From the sequence record PQ850594.1: a stretch of 64,000 bases of DNA; one strand, written 5' to 3'. Under the pieces are notes generated by a model that was not told the origin of the DNA, searched no databases, and saw only the letters and a program-made list of their open reading frames with translations. This document shows positions 15,738-51,460 of the stretch, piece after piece. The position numbers and the translations under genes are program-made. The DNA is from Escherichia phage AnnaHegner_Bas87. The number at the start of each line of letters is the position of its first letter. The stretch's first letter is position 1.

Positions 15738-15790
15738 ACAAAAAAAGCCCCCAACCTGTAAAAAGGAAGGGGGCTTCTTTATTTCTAGAT
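15738..15790. terminator. bidirectional terminator between convergent blocks
   Basis: AGCCCCC...GGGGGCT hairpin with A-run on the left and T-rich on the right. Confidence 0.6.
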
Positions 15791-17818: not shown

Positions 17819-18383
17819 TAATCCACTCTAAATCCTCAACTGCCTCTTCTACAGAACGGTCATTAAAGAGGAGGTAGGTTGGTAGGTTTGTTCCTTCAAT
17901 ATAAGAACGGGAGTCTCCTTCAAAGGAGCAGCCATCGCGGAGAATCTGAACTACTCGAACATGGAAGTGTTTCTCTAGTTCTTCAACTTCTGCTTTAAAT
18001 CCACCATCAGAGAAGACGATAACATCATTCTGTGATGGGATACGTTGTTGAATACTGCTAACAGCAAGTTTACCCATGCAGGTCTCACCAAACATAGGCT
18101 TCAGGTAATTCTCGCTAGTTGCAATCATCAAGTCTCGAACTGACTTACCGTCCCATTCAGGACGGCTATGTTCTTTCCACTCACGGTCGTTGTACAGCTC
18201 CATGAACTCGTAAAGAGGTAGACCTAATGCAGCAGCAGCCACTCGATACATAGGCTCCTTAAAAGCCTTTACATGCGGCCTAAACTCGGTGTTACCAAGT
18301 GTTTTCTCTAACCAAGAATTAGCGATTGTATCTTTACCACAACCCGGTGGTCCATTCAGAATTACTACTAATGGTTTACTCAT
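17787..18383 (-). CDS. P-loop kinase, putative dNMP kinase
   Basis: Walker A GPPGCGKDT at N-terminus; size consistent with phage dNMP kinases. Confidence 0.5.
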   Translation of the reverse strand: MSKPLVVILNGPPGCGKDTIANSWLEKTLGNTEFRPHVKAFKEPMYRVAAAALGLPLYEFMELYNDREWKEHSRPEWDGKSVRDLMIATSENYLKPMFGETCMGKLAVSSIQQRIPSQNDVIVFSDGGFKAEVEELEKHFHVRVVQILRDGCSFEGDSRSYIEGTNLPTYLLFNDRSVEEAVEDLEWIIEGTRRGLYV

Positions 18384-19033
18384 TATTGAATCATCCCTTG
18401 AAGATCTTCTTTATCAAAGTGCTTCTCTACTACCGCTTCATACAGATCACGATTCTCTGAATAACGACGATAGAAGGTTCCGTGTGAAATTCCCAACTCT
18501 TGCTGGATGTGATCATGTGGGATGCCGAGAAAGAGCATTGAGAACATGCTTGCCATCTTACGGTTTTCCATAATGTCACTCAGGTCTTGGAAGAAGAAAA
18601 AGATTCTAGATTCCAAGAACGGGTCTCCAGTAGAATCATGCTTATCCATCGCAATCTCTAAAGGACTTTCCCATGAATTCATCTCAGGAGGTCTAAACAT
18701 ATCAGCCTCTGGAATAGAGTAGATACGTCGGTCTCCAACTGTCTGACGATTAGAACGAATCGACCAGATGATATTCTTGACACGATAAGTCATGTGCTCA
18801 ATATCTTTTTCATCAGTGAGCAGAAGTTCTTCTTGCTTTGCAAATACAAAACGCCAAGCGTTCAGTAACACTTCCTGAGCAACATCCTCTGCCTCGTGAT
18901 AATCTTTAATGTCATACATAAAATACTTATGCACAACTTTCCAGTTCTCTCGATAAAATTCATCGAAGGTTGGATAATATTTAATAGGAATGCCATGAAT
19001 ACGATAGCGTGTGGGTGTTGTCTTCTTCTTCAT
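18383..19033 (-). CDS. phage-encoded sigma-70-family sigma factor
   Basis: region 2-like [15 protein letters not shown] and C-terminal region 4-like HTH; ATGA overlap with downstream gene. Confidence 0.7.
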
Positions 19034-20329: not shown

Positions 20330-20351
20330 AAAAAAGCCACCCAAAGGTGGC
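20330..20351 (-). terminator. rho-independent terminator (minus strand)
   Basis: GCCACC-CAAA-GGTGGC hairpin followed on the minus strand by a T-run. Confidence 0.6.
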
Positions 20352-20374
20352 TAAGCTATTACAAGGAGAGATTC

Positions 20375-21115
20375 TTAGAATGGAGAGTCATCCTCTTCAA
20401 AGGTTGATTGCGGCTCTTCATTAATGGTAGGGATGCTTGGAGTAGCATCTTTCTGTTCAGTGTCAGAAGCTTTAGTAACTTCACGACCAGCCAGAGGGAT
20501 ATTCTTAGCATCGTTAGCTTGAGTCAAGAGGCTACGTTGGAATGGGAAGATTGCTTGATAAGCAGCTAAGTTAGCGTCAGTCTCAGCATACGGTTCGAAG
20601 AAGATCAACTCACTACGAGGAGCACCTACCGCGTCACGATATTTAGTCGGGATTGGAGTGATGCTTTTAATGGAGTTTTTCTTCTCACCAGCTTTGTTTA
20701 CATAGGAATTAACCAGAATGTTAACAGGCTGACCTAACAGCATATCTTTAAACCAACCCAAATCACCTTTCAGTGCTTGAACACTTGGGTCGATCATTTT
20801 AATCAGATTTAGAATACCAGAGTTCTTAGCTCGTGGATTTACATCGAAAGATTTAAACTGGCAAGCAGGACGAGGGTCCAGAGGTTTGCCTTCATTATCA
20901 GTCCCTGTTGCATCTACGCCAATCAGCTCAAAAGCTAAGTCCATACGGAAAGCTGGATTCTTAGGAGTAACTGCTTTGGTTTTAGGGTCAATCCAAGGGT
21001 CACGATTGTGAACACCCAAACCTACAACACGAACAATACGTGCTTCGTACTCACCATCAGGGATTACATCGTAGTTGGATTTACGGGATACAGACAGTTC
21101 AGGGATCATAGACAT
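20375..21115 (-). CDS. putative single-stranded DNA-binding protein
   Basis: acidic C-terminal tail ending EEDDSPF resembles SSB/gp2.5 tails; adjacent to replication genes; weak inference. Confidence 0.4.
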   Translation of the reverse strand: MSMIPELSVSRKSNYDVIPDGEYEARIVRVVGLGVHNRDPWIDPKTKAVTPKNPAFRMDLAFELIGVDATGTDNEGKPLDPRPACQFKSFDVNPRAKNSGILNLIKMIDPSVQALKGDLGWFKDMLLGQPVNILVNSYVNKAGEKKNSIKSITPIPTKYRDAVGAPRSELIFFEPYAETDANLAAYQAIFPFQRSLLTQANDAKNIPLAGREVTKASDTEQKDATPSIPTINEEPQSTFEEDDSPF

Positions 21116-21174
21116 ATTAATATTTCCTTATATAGATTTAAGATTGTTGCTCTCTTTGAGCGGTTTGTATACTA

Positions 21175-21183
21175 TATACATTA
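21175..21183 (-). promoter_or_regulatory. TAATGTATA promoter-like element (minus strand)
   Basis: exact motif about 60 nt upstream of the 21115 start. Confidence 0.5.
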
Positions 21184-21245
21184 CACTTATACAGATAAGG
21201 TTCTATTATACTATAACCTTTTTGGTAGTAGATAATGACAAGTAG

Positions 21246-21254
21246 TAATGTATA
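21246..21254 (+). promoter_or_regulatory. TAATGTATA promoter-like element (plus strand)
   Basis: exact motif on the plus strand back-to-back with the minus-strand copy, facing a ~190 nt ORF-free segment. Confidence 0.35.
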
Positions 21255-21448
21255 TATGGTATAGCTAGTAAAGCTATTGCAGGCTTGTATATTGGGCAAT
21301 CATTGTAACCCTTGCAAGTACCGAAGGGCAGGAGACACCTGCGAGATAAAAATAGAGAATTAAGGAAATCCTTGATTTAGGTTGAGGACTCCTAGGACTT
21401 TGATTCTCTATTAAAATCAAAAGAAAACTTAACTTAAAACAATAACTT

Positions 21449-22087
21449 CTACCATTCTAAAAGACCTTTAAAACTAGTTTGTTCTACTGTTCTCTGATAA
21501 GGTAAGTTAGATTCTGCTTGTTTGCTTAACATCTCTTGTACTTTATCAGTAATTGGATAATCTTTTTGTAATAAAGAAGCTATCCACTCTTTCCTACTTT
21601 CCAGTTCTTTTCTAATCTCTTGCAGAGACACAGCTTTGTAATCAATTTGTTCCATAGAGGTACAAAAATATCTCCAATCTTTGATAGTAGAGTTATGAGT
21701 ATGAGCATAGATATTATACTTTCCTCTCATTTCATCAGAGTGAATAGGAATATGAGTTACCCAAAATTCTTTGTATTTATAATCACCACTGATGTGTCTA
21801 AAGACTTTCATCATATCAGGGAGAAGTTCTAATCTGTCATGATTTCCTAAGACAAGATGTTTCTCTCCCTTTACTTCAGCGATAATATCAAGTGCATATT
21901 TCTCAAACACCCAATCACCTGTAAAGAAAGTTTTATCACGTTTAGTAACATGGTCGAACGCTGCTAAGATAGCTTTGTCATGTTCTTCAATACTACTAAA
22001 CTTCTTTCTAAAATTACAGATGTTACGATGGCCTAGGTGACCATCACCTGCAAAATAAACTTCAGCCATTCTCGTATGTGTCCTCAT
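21449..22087 (-). CDS. calcineurin-like metallophosphoesterase
   Basis: GDGHLGH, GNHD and HTHN metal-binding motifs. Confidence 0.65.
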   Translation of the reverse strand: MRTHTRMAEVYFAGDGHLGHRNICNFRKKFSSIEEHDKAILAAFDHVTKRDKTFFTGDWVFEKYALDIIAEVKGEKHLVLGNHDRLELLPDMMKVFRHISGDYKYKEFWVTHIPIHSDEMRGKYNIYAHTHNSTIKDWRYFCTSMEQIDYKAVSLQEIRKELESRKEWIASLLQKDYPITDKVQEMLSKQAESNLPYQRTVEQTSFKGLLEW

Positions 22088-24389: not shown

Positions 24390-26237
24390 TTAGTGAGTGT
24401 GATTCCAGTTTAACCCAATCTTACAGTCAGATGCCAGAGGGCATTCCATTTTGAGATACTCACCTGCTTTACGAACACACTCTTCAGTGAGGGTACGAAG
24501 TTTGTTAACATCGTCACGATGTACAGTGAACTGGCCTTCATCATGCATGTCAATAACCTTCGCACAACGAACACCATCACGCTCAATCCATTTATTAAGG
24601 AATAGCATTGCATACTTCATAACAATCGCCCCAGCGCTCTGTAAGAGAGTATTTAAGGCTTTATGAACCATAACCTTTCCAGTTGCATCTCTTCTCATTG
24701 TAATACGACGTCCATCCACACCGTAGATGTATCCACTTTGTGCTTTCTCTGTCATACGTTCAATAAGAATTGCAATACAAGGATTCTCTGCTAAGAATCT
24801 TGCCCTCATGACAGCTCCTTCATCAGAGCCACCGCCTACGATGCTTCCTAACTTAGCGTCACCAGCTCCGTAGTTGAATGCGTAGATAAATGTTTTAGCA
24901 TTATCACGAGTAGGAAGGCCAGCAAGTTTTTGGTTATGTGAGTGAATATCTCCTTCTAAAAGAATATCTCTGTACATAACAGCAGAAGCTAGACCGCGTT
25001 CAGCTTCTCGTTTCTTAGCCGGGTTGTTTTCTCGCTCTGCTTCAGCGAGCATCTCACGACACTCTTTAATAAGGTAGTGAGCTAGCATCCTCAGCTCAAG
25101 ACCAGAGCCATCGTAACCTAAGAAGATTTCACGACCAGCAGGAACATAGAACTTATAGGCACCTACAGGTTTGTCTTTCTTGCCCGGTTTTCCCACTTCG
25201 TAGATAGTGTTAGTACCCTTTCGTACGTAACACCCATCAGGGATATGGTTGGTAATGGTGAAAGGATGGTTATGACTATCGTCTGAGGAATAGTCAGATT
25301 GAAAAAGACTGCGGCACTCGTGACCAAACAAACCGCGAGAAGGAATATTAACAACAATGCGATGTTTAAAACGAAATGTCGGAGTAGCGCAGCTATTAGC
25401 TTCGGCGGACAACTTACCATCTTTACGTTCCTTGTCGATAAGCCCGCTAATCAAACCTAGCCTGTGAGCCGCTACAACGCGTCTCTTAAGCAAACTTCCT
25501 ACACCCCCTAGCTCACCCCCAAGCCCTTCTTCAAGAGTCTCCTCAAGGTTTGTAGGGGCTGTAGGCCACTTGTTTGATGTAGCCAAAGCTTTTTTGATTT
25601 CATCAAAGGTTACAGGCTTCTTCCTATTAGGGTTAAGACCTAAACCGCTGACATAGGCTTTCATATAATTGACAGTGTGATAACGGAAGTGCTTATCCAA
25701 AAACCTTCGGATATCAGCATCTATCATCTCTGCTGTCTGTTTCTCTTTAGCGTTACCTCGAATCCAAGCAGAATACCATGCAGAGTATGTACCATACTTC
25801 TTCATAGCTTTACGAATTTCAAAAGTATTCCAAGGTTTCTTAGAATAATTCCACTCTGGAGGTATAAAACCTTCATCCATCAAGGCTTCTTTAATACGTG
25901 CATCTTTTGATGGGTCAAAATCTACATACTCAACGCAAGTAAACGCCCCACCGATATCTTCTCTTTTAAGACCAACCCTATCGCAATAGAGCTGAGGCCA
26001 CTTCTGTAAAGCACCTGACTTCTTAAAAGGCTTAGCATAAGTTGAACCATCCACCCGCATTTTAGGGAGGAGAGGAATCAGTTCTTTATCAATATTGACA
26101 ATAATCTCTTTGAGAAGGTGAACAAACCACCGAGCGTTTCTTCTGTTGAAGTTGACTCCATGCTTCGCTTGTTTTGAGATTATATCAGCGACTGTCATCT
26201 CCGTTATGAAAGGTAACTTATCAGGGTTATCCATCAC
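24390..26237 (-). CDS. DNA polymerase, family A, polymerase domain only (T7 gp5-like)
   Basis: DGSGLELRMLAHY (motif A), RDNAKTFIYAFNYGAG (motif B), VIDMHDEGQF (motif C); no exonuclease domain in this ORF. Confidence 0.85.
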   Translation of the reverse strand: MMDNPDKLPFITEMTVADIISKQAKHGVNFNRRNARWFVHLLKEIIVNIDKELIPLLPKMRVDGSTYAKPFKKSGALQKWPQLYCDRVGLKREDIGGAFTCVEYVDFDPSKDARIKEALMDEGFIPPEWNYSKKPWNTFEIRKAMKKYGTYSAWYSAWIRGNAKEKQTAEMIDADIRRFLDKHFRYHTVNYMKAYVSGLGLNPNRKKPVTFDEIKKALATSNKWPTAPTNLEETLEEGLGGELGGVGSLLKRRVVAAHRLGLISGLIDKERKDGKLSAEANSCATPTFRFKHRIVVNIPSRGLFGHECRSLFQSDYSSDDSHNHPFTITNHIPDGCYVRKGTNTIYEVGKPGKKDKPVGAYKFYVPAGREIFLGYDGSGLELRMLAHYLIKECREMLAEAERENNPAKKREAERGLASAVMYRDILLEGDIHSHNQKLAGLPTRDNAKTFIYAFNYGAGDAKLGSIVGGGSDEGAVMRARFLAENPCIAILIERMTEKAQSGYIYGVDGRRITMRRDATGKVMVHKALNTLLQSAGAIVMKYAMLFLNKWIERDGVRCAKVIDMHDEGQFTVHRDDVNKLRTLTEECVRKAGEYLKMECPLASDCKIGLNWNHTH

Positions 26238-27174: not shown

Positions 27175-27492
27175 TTAACTTGAGCTTAAAGCTCCTTTTC
27201 GACCGCCTGCTGATTTTCCAGCACGATCTCCACTTTTGCCGCCGTTCGAGCGATTTCGAGAGACTGATTCAACACGTAAGTTACTTGACGCATTAGAACC
27301 TCCCGACTTGATTGATCGTTTGTGTCCAACATCTTTACCTCGGACAGCAGCTTTTCCATCGCGCTTTTCAACGATGCGACGTGCACGGTGGCGCTGAGCA
27401 TCTCCGCTCTTGCTACCAACGCCGGTCTCACCCCTTGCGATTGCAGTTCTTCGTTCTTGTGCATAATCACGTTTCGCCTTATCGGTCATCAC
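27175..27492 (-). CDS. basic Gly/Lys/Arg-rich protein, KGG-repeat-like
   Basis: strong TAAGGAG RBS and TAATGTATA motif upstream; preferred over overlapping alternative-frame ORF 27186-27470. Confidence 0.45.
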   Translation of the reverse strand: MMTDKAKRDYAQERRTAIARGETGVGSKSGDAQRHRARRIVEKRDGKAAVRGKDVGHKRSIKSGGSNASSNLRVESVSRNRSNGGKSGDRAGKSAGGRKGALSSS

Positions 27493-27524
27493 AACTCCTT
27501 AACATATCAGTGTACACTAAGGAG

Positions 27525-27533
27525 TATACATTA
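27525..27533 (-). promoter_or_regulatory. TAATGTATA promoter-like element (minus strand)
   Basis: exact motif in the 44 nt gap between the PhoH stop and the 27492 start. Confidence 0.5.
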
Positions 27534-32464: not shown

Positions 32465-32795
32465 CCCCTTCTAAGTTAGTTGAATTAGCTACATTACGAG
32501 CAATGTTATCCATGACCTGCTGGGTAATAACAATGCAATTCTGTGGGTCTACAGACTTAGAACGCCCCATTTCAGGGTCATAAACCTTAACACGCTTGGC
32601 TGTTGAGCCAGTAACTTGCAACACTTTGAGAAGATAACCTTGGTTTCCAATAGACCATGCAACAACATCACGATTCTTGATATAACGACCAAGCATATCA
32701 CGATGATAGAACTGCTGCATAACTTTAGCTTTGCTAATCTCTTCAGATGGCGGGGCCACTTTACTCAAATCTAACATAACTCTCTCCTGTTTCAT
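32448..32795 (-). CDS. hypothetical protein
   Basis: AGGAGAG RBS; AAATGTATA promoter-like variant upstream. Confidence 0.4.
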   Translation of the reverse strand: MKQERVMLDLSKVAPPSEEISKAKVMQQFYHRDMLGRYIKNRDVVAWSIGNQGYLLKVLQVTGSTAKRVKVYDPEMGRSKSVDPQNCIVITQQVMDNIARNVANSTNLEGDAPNA

Positions 32796-32813
32796 ACAAT
32801 ATTCTTATACTGT

Positions 32814-32822
32814 ATATACATT
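32814..32822 (-). promoter_or_regulatory. promoter-like variant AAATGTATA (minus strand)
   Basis: one-mismatch variant of TAATGTATA about 20 nt upstream of the 32795 start. Confidence 0.3.
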
Positions 32823-32847
32823 TGAGAGTTATCATATCTACTACCAA

Positions 32848-42758: not shown

Positions 42759-43859
42759 TTACAGTAGTCGTTCTAATTGCATTTCCAGATGGTCTGGAAT
42801 ATAACCAGTGACGTTATCATCACTGCTACCTGATTCACGCATCAATGCAAACATGTGACGAATTTCACGAACCGTTGCGATTCGAGTGCTTTCAATCTGA
42901 GGGGTGTAGTAGGTCATGATCTCTTCGTAGACACTGTTGGCATTACCGCGCACATATCCCAAGAAACCATAGAAGTCATTCATATCACGTAAGTTGATAA
43001 GGACTTCACCATCAGGGCCAGTCTGTTGCACACGAACACGACCAACCAAAGTCACAGATTGCTCACGACAGAAGAGAATATCACGAGCAAGACGATACCC
43101 TTCAGTGAGATCACTGTCTCTTGGAGTATAGTCTAGGGGTAGATGTTGAATCATAGGAGCGAAGCGCAGCTCATTCAACTTCTCAACATAAGCTTCATTG
43201 TCTAAATCTGCATATTCAACAGCCAGTTTCTTGAGAACCAAGAAGCGGTTGACCAGATTCAGAAGTTGGCTCTTTTTCCACTTCGGCTCTGAGATACGGA
43301 ACTCAACAGAACCAAATTGAGATAGAGGCAAAAGATTAAGGGAGGTATATTTATCCCAGCTATTAACAAGAGAGTGGAAGAAAGCTTCCCCGTCTCGGTT
43401 GAACGCTGACGAAGCATTCATAACTTGTGCTTGAACGACAGCAAAAGCTGGACAGAAGTTGCTACGATAGCGATGGTATCCAGAACATTTGAACATCATC
43501 TTTTCATAGAACGTCCATCCAAGAATAACTTTCTTAAGGATGTTACTATCAGCGTCACGCATATCCATATGAACATGAGTGGAGCAGCGCCAAGTTCCCT
43601 CGGCTCCAGAATCCTGTACTGCTTCACTCAGATTGTTAATAGCACGAAGTAATTCTTCACCGTTGTAAGGTCGTGCACATACTAATTCACAACCATCACG
43701 AAGAGAGCCATCTTCAGTACAAACCCACATATCAGCGTCAATGTCAGTTGTACCTTCGACTTCTAACTCAATACCAACACCACACTGAAAAGCAATACTT
43801 GGATGCGGTTCAGATAAGCGAGGGTTACGGTATCCAAAAACTTGTGCTACGGTTGTCAT
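42759..43859 (-). CDS. glutamine-synthetase-like amidoligase (GCS2/YbdK-like carboxylate-amine ligase)
   Basis: GVGIELEVEG N-terminal acidic strand and STHVHMD His motif. Confidence 0.55.
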   Translation of the reverse strand: MTTVAQVFGYRNPRLSEPHPSIAFQCGVGIELEVEGTTDIDADMWVCTEDGSLRDGCELVCARPYNGEELLRAINNLSEAVQDSGAEGTWRCSTHVHMDMRDADSNILKKVILGWTFYEKMMFKCSGYHRYRSNFCPAFAVVQAQVMNASSAFNRDGEAFFHSLVNSWDKYTSLNLLPLSQFGSVEFRISEPKWKKSQLLNLVNRFLVLKKLAVEYADLDNEAYVEKLNELRFAPMIQHLPLDYTPRDSDLTEGYRLARDILFCREQSVTLVGRVRVQQTGPDGEVLINLRDMNDFYGFLGYVRGNANSVYEEIMTYYTPQIESTRIATVREIRHMFALMRESGSSDDNVTGYIPDHLEMQLERLL

Positions 43860-44482
43860 AATGATTCCACCAACTCTACATTATATGATGACAGGTCTGA
43901 AGAAATATGCTTGAACTTCTCCAGAAGGTTTAAAGATTGACGACCATTGTCGCCATAACCAGCTTCAAGAAGCACGTTTCCAACGTAAGCCCCTTTGTAA
44001 TAAACTTTTCCATCGACAGGATTGATATAGATGAAACGAGTAACCAACCCTTCAAACTCTGGATTAAACAGGTTGTACACCAAATCACCCGGAATCGAAC
44101 GTCCGAGAGAAGGTGGAGTACCACGAAGTTTATTCCCCATCAAGCCTTTAGCTCGCTGACGAACAGGGTTGATATGGGTCCAGCTCACCATGTTATTACC
44201 ATGCTGAAGGTATCCTACATCTGGAGACTCCAGAATGAGGCTGTGATCAAACACTGGGATATTACTAACAATCTGACGTTCAAACTGACCTTCGGAGTTT
44301 TTAGTCCAGCGTTCCGCCTCAAACACTAAAGACATTTCAGCGTCGTGTGAGTAGTCGTCAATATCAAAGTTACCTTGCTGACGAACATCAAGCACATATA
44401 GAGGGAGGTTTTTACCATCAGGTGATCGCTGGGCAATCCATGTTCCACAATAATAGTGTTGAAAATCTCTTAACAAGCTCAC
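43856..44482 (-). CDS. hypothetical protein in ligase cluster
   Basis: ORF only; overlaps neighbours by 4 nt. Confidence 0.4.
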   Translation of the reverse strand: MSLLRDFQHYYCGTWIAQRSPDGKNLPLYVLDVRQQGNFDIDDYSHDAEMSLVFEAERWTKNSEGQFERQIVSNIPVFDHSLILESPDVGYLQHGNNMVSWTHINPVRQRAKGLMGNKLRGTPPSLGRSIPGDLVYNLFNPEFEGLVTRFIYINPVDGKVYYKGAYVGNVLLEAGYGDNGRQSLNLLEKFKHISSDLSSYNVELVESL

Positions 44483-51384: not shown

Positions 51385-51460
51385 TGGTGCACCCTACAGG
51401 ATTCGAACCTGTAACCAACGACTTAGAAGGTCGCTGCTCTATCCATTGAGCTAAGGGTGC
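51385..51460 (-). tRNA. tRNA-Arg (anticodon UCU), with encoded CCA
   Basis: cloverleaf folded by hand: 7 bp acceptor stem GCACCCT/AGGGTGC, D-arm GCTC/GAGC, anticodon loop CUUCUAA, T-arm ACAGG-TTCGAAT-CCTGT. Confidence 0.85.

Follow-up and report, generated by a model that had tools for sequence, protein, structure and literature searches.

A conserved motif opposite promoter P40 of phiEco32-like coliphages is a candidate seventh gp36 promoter for a structured antisense RNA

The intergenic region upstream of gene 40 in a phiEco32-like coliphage carries two divergent copies of the promoter element of the phage sigma factor gp36. The copy on the minus strand is the published promoter P40, which drives the SSB-like gene 40, and this half of the pair is already known. 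For the copy on the plus strand we propose, with confidence evenly divided between acceptance and doubt, that the two copies form a divergent gp36 promoter pair in which the plus-strand copy is a seventh gp36 promoter that would give rise to a structured antisense non-coding RNA of ~155 nt. The existence of a plus-strand transcript as such we hold to be rather probable, judging from the sequence comparisons presented below.

Work on sigma factors encoded by phages has phiEco32 as its reference system, the gp36 promoter map of which is quoted as comprising six promoters. The phiEco32 model would gain a level of regulation from a seventh promoter, because it would be opposed to the gene block and would make a conserved non-coding RNA. 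If true, the RNA would represent a family that is absent from Rfam, and the finding would bear on the shut-off of early transcripts or on the start of replication in a phage group that is widely used in therapy collections.

Genomic Context and Sequences Compared

As judged by sequence similarity the window, i.e., the whole stretch of DNA that was analysed (64,000 nucleotides), belongs to a Kuravirus, a phiEco32-like coliphage. The 1.9 kb around the intergenic region were 99.8% identical to Escherichia phage NC-B and matched 98 phage records, all of them from phiEco32-like podophages that have E. coli or Shigella as their host; the matching records whose taxonomy was checked belonged to the Gordonclarkvirinae, mostly to Kuravirus. 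The original prediction had reasoned from a T7-like setting, which has to be replaced by that of a phiEco32-like phage, in which host RNA polymerase works with a phage sigma factor. For the comparisons described below 26 Kuravirus-type sequences from isolates, IMG/VR contigs, and metagenome contigs were used, and in total ~30 of the roughly 100 known relatives were covered, all of these sequences being related to each other.

Genes on the minus strand span ~16 kb to 61 kb of the window. They include the homologue of the phage sigma factor gp36 (18383-19033, minus strand), which is 80% identical to phiEco32 gp36 and has a weak Sigma70_r2 match under the Pfam cut-off. The DNA polymerase gene (24390-26237) is part of the replication-gene block, and a tRNA-Arg(TCT) gene was observed in the early region (51385-51460, minus strand). 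The intergenic region itself (21116-21448, 333 nt) is located between the two minus-strand ORFs 20375..21115 and 21449..22087. The second of these, which is the gene upstream of the gap, encodes a calcineurin-like phosphoesterase (Pfam PF00149; phrog_547).

The ORF at 20375..21115 is the homologue of gene 40 (phi32_40) and encodes a protein of 246 aa that, based on homology and fold searches, is a probable OB-fold SSB. Sequence searches with the protein gave no match in Pfam, among the PHROG functions, or in the PDB, and "ssDNA-binding protein" is its name in a few GenBank records. When its AlphaFold model (pLDDT 82, pTM 0.74) was searched with Foldseek, nearly all matches were to OB-fold SSB, PriB, RPA, or PrgE proteins, and these matches were weak (best E-value 9e-4, TM <0.5). 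The acidic C-terminal tail ends in EEDDSPF, the P-F being invariant in 37 homologues, and resembles the tip of E. coli SSB. The earlier designation of this neighbour as a putative SSB thus finds backing in the weak OB-fold matches and in the acidic tail and none in Pfam; an OB-fold SSB is plausible for the gene 40 product, if weakly shown. In the leader of gene 40 a small conserved hairpin, GCUC-AAAGA-GAGC (21149..21161, minus strand), was recognized from an invariant alignment block and from folding, and it may serve as a translational operator of the SSB type. A different hairpin is found at this position in 7-11, GAP52, and PKM.Lu.22.1.

The Divergent Promoter Pair

The nonamer TAATGTATA was found as an exact match at 21175-21183 on the minus strand and at 21246-21254 on the plus strand, the two copies being divergent with 62 nt between them, in full agreement with the original prediction of back-to-back motifs about 60 bp apart in a gap of 333 bp. 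The window contains four exact copies of the nonamer vs. 0.67 expected, a number that was reached in 1 of 100 shuffles, and two of the four are <80 nt apart in divergent orientation. Given the background rate, any one copy is estimated to have another within +/-100 nt with a probability of ~0.002. The nonamer corresponds to tAATGTAtA, the consensus of the gp36 promoters, which consist of a single element and from which transcripts start 6-8 nt downstream (PMC8948821, PMC4331800, PMC4281155); both copies match this consensus at nine of nine positions. The published lists give six gp36 promoters, namely P6, P13, P26, P40, P58, and P68 (PMC8948821 Table S3; PMC4331800).

Since the minus-strand copy (21175..21183) stands before the gene-40 homologue, it is the P40 of the published list, a gp36-dependent middle promoter with a predicted start at ~21167-21169. 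Its nonamer had a pairwise identity of 1.00 among the 26 Kuravirus-type sequences. The plus-strand copy (21246..21254, predicted start at ~21260-21262) is also present in phiEco32 itself and is not among the gp36 promoters in the lists given in PMC8948821, PMC4331800, and PMC4281155, which cite the primary study. It is not located upstream of a gene on its own strand: no plus-strand ORF of at least 40 aa occurs before 21620, and the motif is directed at the 3' end of a gene on the minus strand.

The plus-strand nonamer was exact in 25 of the 26 Kuravirus-type sequences (pairwise identity 0.991), as compared to an identity of 0.59 for the variable spacer between the two promoters (21184..21221), 0.43 for the 11 nt just 5' of the plus-strand copy, and 0.80 for the third codon positions of gene 40. 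It was kept in every relative that carries the conserved block described below. It also survives in the ES17 group, where ~120 nt with hairpins of their own, including a 47-aa ORF annotated in ES17, are inserted between P40 and the plus-strand motif, and the spacing between the two promoters ranges from 62 to ~185 nt. The plus-strand motif is thus under purifying selection. The core is not absolutely fixed, since it reads TAATATATA in one metagenomic Kuravirus (ERZ1034915 NODE-75), in which P40 is still exact, and consistently TAATGAATA in a second clade whose gene 40 is 72-74% identical.

These changed cores, one in a single metagenome and one in a whole clade, would be in line with a reading in which the RNA is a by-product and the block downstream is conserved for reasons of the minus strand or of the DNA, e.g., as a terminator, a possible RNase III site, or a recombination linker. 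The plus-strand motif would then be a relic of a duplicated P68, serve as a sink for polymerase, or stimulate P40 as its divergent partner through transcription-induced supercoiling. We consider this reading unlikely. A relic would not remain 99% identical between flanks of 43-59% identity, and the range of spacings to P40 argues against a geometric coupling of the two promoters.

The relationship to P68 is specific. The 13-nt element TTGGTAGTAGATA (21222..21234, plus strand) upstream of the plus-strand copy has only two exact copies in the window, the second being located at 32835-32847 on the minus strand. The gap between this element and the core is 11 nt at the plus-strand copy, and the second copy is equally far from AAATGTATA at 32815-32823 (minus strand). 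Each of five complete genomes contained the bipartite pattern TGGTAGTAKAT-N12-WAATGTATA exactly twice, at the site of the plus-strand copy and at the P68 site. In phiEco32 the second bipartite site lies inside the 72-nt gap directly 5' of phi32_68 and is therefore the published P68.

The plus-strand copy and P68 are hence paralogous sites that share the core (W)AATGTATA, an identical TTGGTAGTAGATA element, the spacing of 11 nt, and a 5' hairpin at the start of the (predicted) transcript, and both are conserved in every genome examined. They differ in that P68 precedes a protein gene and has the orientation of the gene block, whereas the plus-strand copy is on the opposite strand, has no ORF downstream, and does not appear in the published lists. 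The similarity suggests an origin by duplication, which would also be expected if the RNA were a by-product. Under the reading that we favour, host RNA polymerase together with gp36 would read both of the divergent promoters, the one on the plus strand being of the P68 type (TTGGTAGTAGATA, 11-nt gap, TAATGTATA) with a start near 21261. Recognition by sigma-70, with TTGGTA of TTGGTAGTAGATA as the -35 box, was considered as well and rejected, since by eye no acceptable -10 box was present at a distance of 16-18 nt.

Coding Potential and Structure of the Predicted RNA

The original prediction had described ~190 nt of ORF-free, structured sequence in front of the plus-strand copy, and this description was confirmed: 21255-21448 contains no plus-strand ORF of at least 40 aa, with stops in all plus frames, and folds better than its shuffled versions (z-score -2.6 for the plus and -2.9 for the minus strand). 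A coding function of the region was rejected on account of the stops in every frame and of 1-nt indels between close relatives. Likewise, the minus-strand ORFs 21138..21299 and 21274..21420, both with TTG starts, were rejected, since in relatives they are interrupted by indels and by exchanges of the cassette.

The RNA predicted from the plus-strand promoter would have a length of ~155 nt here and of 158-185 nt in relatives, and would have four parts, beginning with a hairpin at the 5' end, followed by an exchangeable cassette, a small GC hairpin, and finally a long hairpin at the 3' end. In the RNA-seq data set PRJNA1225266, which was sampled 10 min after infection of E. coli NC101 with phages among which are the Kuraviruses RSB02 and RSB04, reads were mapped to the host only (PMC12803456).

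The 5'-terminal hairpin, H1 (AUAGCU-AGUAA-AGCUAU, 6 bp; 21261..21277, plus strand), begins at the expected transcription start, 7 nt after the motif. Across ten distinct variants 98.3% of the cells of this helix were paired. Compensatory double changes were observed three times at two pairs (U-A to G-C in one, C-G to U-A and to A-U in the other), in addition to a G-C to G.U change. The covariation score was 0.33 vs. 0.14 in shuffles, 1 of 500 of which reached the observed value (the shuffles ignore phylogeny), and it dropped to ~0 when the partners were slid against each other. Half of the variants (5 of 10) contain a G.U pair that becomes an A.C mismatch if read on the minus strand, and the commonest form of H1 is such a G.U variant, found among others in the phiEco32, ES17, and NJ01 types. 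Accordingly, the free energy of the phiEco32-type H1 is -3.1 kcal/mol on the plus vs. 0.0 kcal/mol on the minus strand, in a helix that is weak overall (-2 to -6 kcal/mol). In the second clade a different hairpin, ACAUC-AAAY-GAUGU, occupies the same distance from the motif, directly before the invariant UUGCA. Hairpins at the 5' end are also found in the P58-like leader (27487-27533, minus strand) and in the P68-like leader (32775-32823, minus strand). Both the covariation of H1 and its G.U pairs, which fit the plus strand only, speak against the RNA being a mere by-product.

Following H1, a variable cassette (21282..21319, plus strand) is inserted between the invariant UUGCA and GAAGGGCAGG. 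The window carries type A, and the unrelated types B, C, and D were found in relatives, which gives at least four unrelated cassettes that assort independently of the type of H1. Three independent Logan assemblies break off 34-204 nt upstream of gene 40, in or next to the intergenic region, and it may be strain polymorphism in the cassette region that interrupts them.

A conserved scaffold with an exchangeable cassette could also be the design of a trans-acting or protein-binding small RNA, the cassette of which would pair with host or phage targets or sequester a protein. The four unrelated cassettes, their independence of the 5' hairpin type, and the invariance of the scaffold would suit such an RNA. 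It would represent a new family, as no Rfam 15 family matched at gathering score, the best match at E<=10 having 18.7 bits vs. a threshold of 41.2. Against it stands that complementarity to the rest of the window was at chance level, the best matches being 12-mers with E-values of about 0.5. Furthermore, a search of 5,426 E. coli genomes (E<=10, blind to seeds shorter than ~24 nt) gave no match to cassettes A and B, and the predicted RNA lacks a U-rich 3' tail of the Hfq type. We regard a trans-acting role as decidedly unlikely.

Downstream of the cassette the sequence becomes nearly invariant. The segment 21320..21352 (plus strand, identity 0.957) contains a small hairpin recovered by alifold, GCAGG-AGACA-CCUGC (21328-21342), and an A-run that on the minus strand is the U-tract of a terminator. 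Together with the long hairpin that follows, it belongs to a block of ~95 nt with an identity of 96-97.5% across all lineages, the second clade among them. With its helices invariant, the block showed no covariation in alifold. Short and long forms of the long hairpin were found in both clades, which implies recombination across the block, and recombination or the role of the minus-strand terminator could partly account for its invariance. The shuffling of these hairpin forms between clades is also what would be expected if the block were kept for DNA-level reasons and the RNA were a by-product. On the other hand, terminators rarely need 95 invariant nucleotides, and the 20-mer of the block that was tested occurs only once in the window, so that the block cannot be a repeated recombination linker.

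The Long Hairpin and the 3' End of the RNA

The long imperfect hairpin at 21351..21412 (identity 0.975), identified by folding, would serve both strands, as a terminator on the minus strand and as the 3' domain of the predicted RNA on the plus strand. Read on the minus strand, the hairpin (21412-21351) lies 37 nt past the stop codon of the phosphoesterase gene and has UUUUUAUC behind it. With a stable stem and a U-run at the operon end, it can thus be assigned to the upstream (phosphoesterase) operon as its intrinsic terminator. It was missed by a consensus terminator scanner because the loop limit of the latter was 8 nt. A good intrinsic terminator exactly at the end of an operon is a further point for the view that the RNA is a by-product of sequence conserved for the minus strand. 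The hairpin itself is more stable on the plus strand (about -22 kcal/mol vs. -14 to -18 kcal/mol on the minus strand) because several of its pairs are G.U.

A canonical intrinsic terminator is located directly 3' of gene 40 (20335-20352, minus strand). Transcribed from its own promoter and flanked by terminators, the SSB-like gene therefore forms a separate unit.

Where the predicted RNA would end is less clearly marked. The terminator scan detected no canonical plus-strand terminator after the long hairpin, nor for kilobases downstream. The Kuravirus sequences have UU(U)AAAA as the plus-strand tail of the hairpin, and the second clade has UUUU or UUU. The RNA could have the predicted length of ~155 nt if the long hairpin stops or protects it, and could otherwise be longer and antisense to the phosphoesterase gene. 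In having an A-run on one side of the hairpin and a U-containing run on the other, and in standing between convergent units, the element resembles bidirectional intrinsic terminators. It differs from them in that the hairpin is ~60 nt long, AU-rich, and nearly invariant and in that the U-run on the plus strand is only 2-4 nt long.

Within the long hairpin two direct repeats were observed (21384-21399; alignment columns 125-148), which read TAGGGACT in most relatives and AGGACT here and are 9-10 nt apart. In one set of phages both repeats have lost a G together.

Putative Function as Antisense RNA

Lambda OOP RNA is a short antisense RNA that is transcribed from pO and is complementary to the 3' end of the cII mRNA. 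The RNA predicted here spans 21351-21412, i.e., the terminator hairpin of the minus-strand operon, and its long 3' hairpin would be the complement of the terminator that ends the oppositely transcribed upstream operon; complementarity to a 3' end, as in OOP, is thus present. According to the mechanism we propose, the RNA would be made once gp36 appears, in the middle phase of infection, and would act in cis as the antisense partner of the 3' terminator hairpin in transcripts of the upstream operon and in read-through transcripts, in the way OOP does on the cII mRNA. The convergent transcription might at the same time insulate the gene-40 unit.

The likeness to OOP consists in a short non-coding transcript from an intergenic promoter that is directed against the neighbouring operon within a block of replication and regulation genes, and in the overlap with the 3' end of convergent transcripts. 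As for the differences, OOP is made by the sigma-70 polymerase, has its own terminator, and overlaps coding sequence, whereas the RNA predicted here would depend on a phage-sigma promoter and have a 3' end not marked by a canonical terminator, and its certain overlap is with the terminator hairpin only. Drawn by analogy, a cis-antisense mechanism of the OOP type is a tentative suggestion that we place on the doubtful side.

Replication Origin as an Alternative

The region had originally been put forward as either an origin or the source of a noncoding transcript. The transcript half is supported by the conserved motif, the P68 architecture, and the covarying plus-strand H1, whereas the origin half fared less well. 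An origin would require that the gp36-dependent plus-strand transcript is the primer or R-loop RNA of a transcription-primed or transcription-activated replication origin, where either an RNA-DNA hybrid in the invariant block or the opening of A+T-rich DNA would allow priming of the leading strand. Parallels are known from T4 oriF/oriG, the T7 primary origin, and ColE1 RNA II. With such transcription-dependent origins the region shares a phage-specific, middle-type promoter, a structured non-coding transcript, conserved DNA beside A+T-rich DNA, and the location in a replication module.

Several features of the region would suit an origin. The middle-type promoter is aimed at ~95 nt of nearly invariant DNA, the invariance of which is at the level of sequence and not merely of structure, as would be expected of a site bound by proteins, and the direct repeats in this block (TAGGGACT or AGGACT, 9-10 bp) are about one helical turn apart. 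The DNA past the block is A+T-rich (72-75% A+T at 21351-21500), purines, and G in particular, are abundant in the RNA-like strand at 21320-21337, and the site lies within the replication-gene block, which includes the SSB-like gene 40 and the DNA polymerase gene. If this reading were true, the onset of replication would be wired to the appearance of gp36, and the ~95-nt block would be the site of the hybrid and of the loading of replication proteins.

Weighed against these features, the only extremes of the cumulative GC skew are at 15773 and 61342, with none at 21.2 kb, which is a weak test for phages; the maximum and minimum coincide with the convergent and the divergent switch of gene orientation. 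The A+T-rich segment that follows the hairpin varies among relatives and is for the most part deleted in the window and in ECBP2, Paul, XT32, and TH34, and leading-strand synthesis from the RNA would run head-on against the transcription of the minus-strand genes. It is in these three respects, the missing skew signal, the poorly conserved A+T-rich part, and the opposition of priming to gene transcription, that the region departs from transcription-dependent origins. In addition, no paper on a phiEco32 origin was present among the top literature matches listed.

The distribution of the element likewise speaks against an origin. Logan contigs with a gene 40 of 61-64% identity did not carry the conserved block, and the Grimontviridae had no divergent promoter upstream of their gene-40 homologue. 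An analogue of the divergent promoter was considered for 7-11, GAP52, and phages of Proteus, Aeromonas, and Vibrio and was rejected, as only the forward promoter was found and the intergenic regions were mostly short. In sum, an origin role has no positive support, and we rate it as very unlikely.

Other gp36-Type Sites in the Window

The remaining copies of the nonamer in the window, exact or with one mismatch, were located at the sites expected for P26, P58, P68, and P6. The same variant as in the published P6, TAATGTAGA, was also found at 43875-43883 (minus strand), ~16 nt upstream of the ATG of the ORF 42759..43859 (minus strand), where it may represent a further gp36 promoter within the block of minus-strand genes. 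At its 5' end the P58-like leader has CUCCUU, which pairs with the Shine-Dalgarno sequence AAGGAG.
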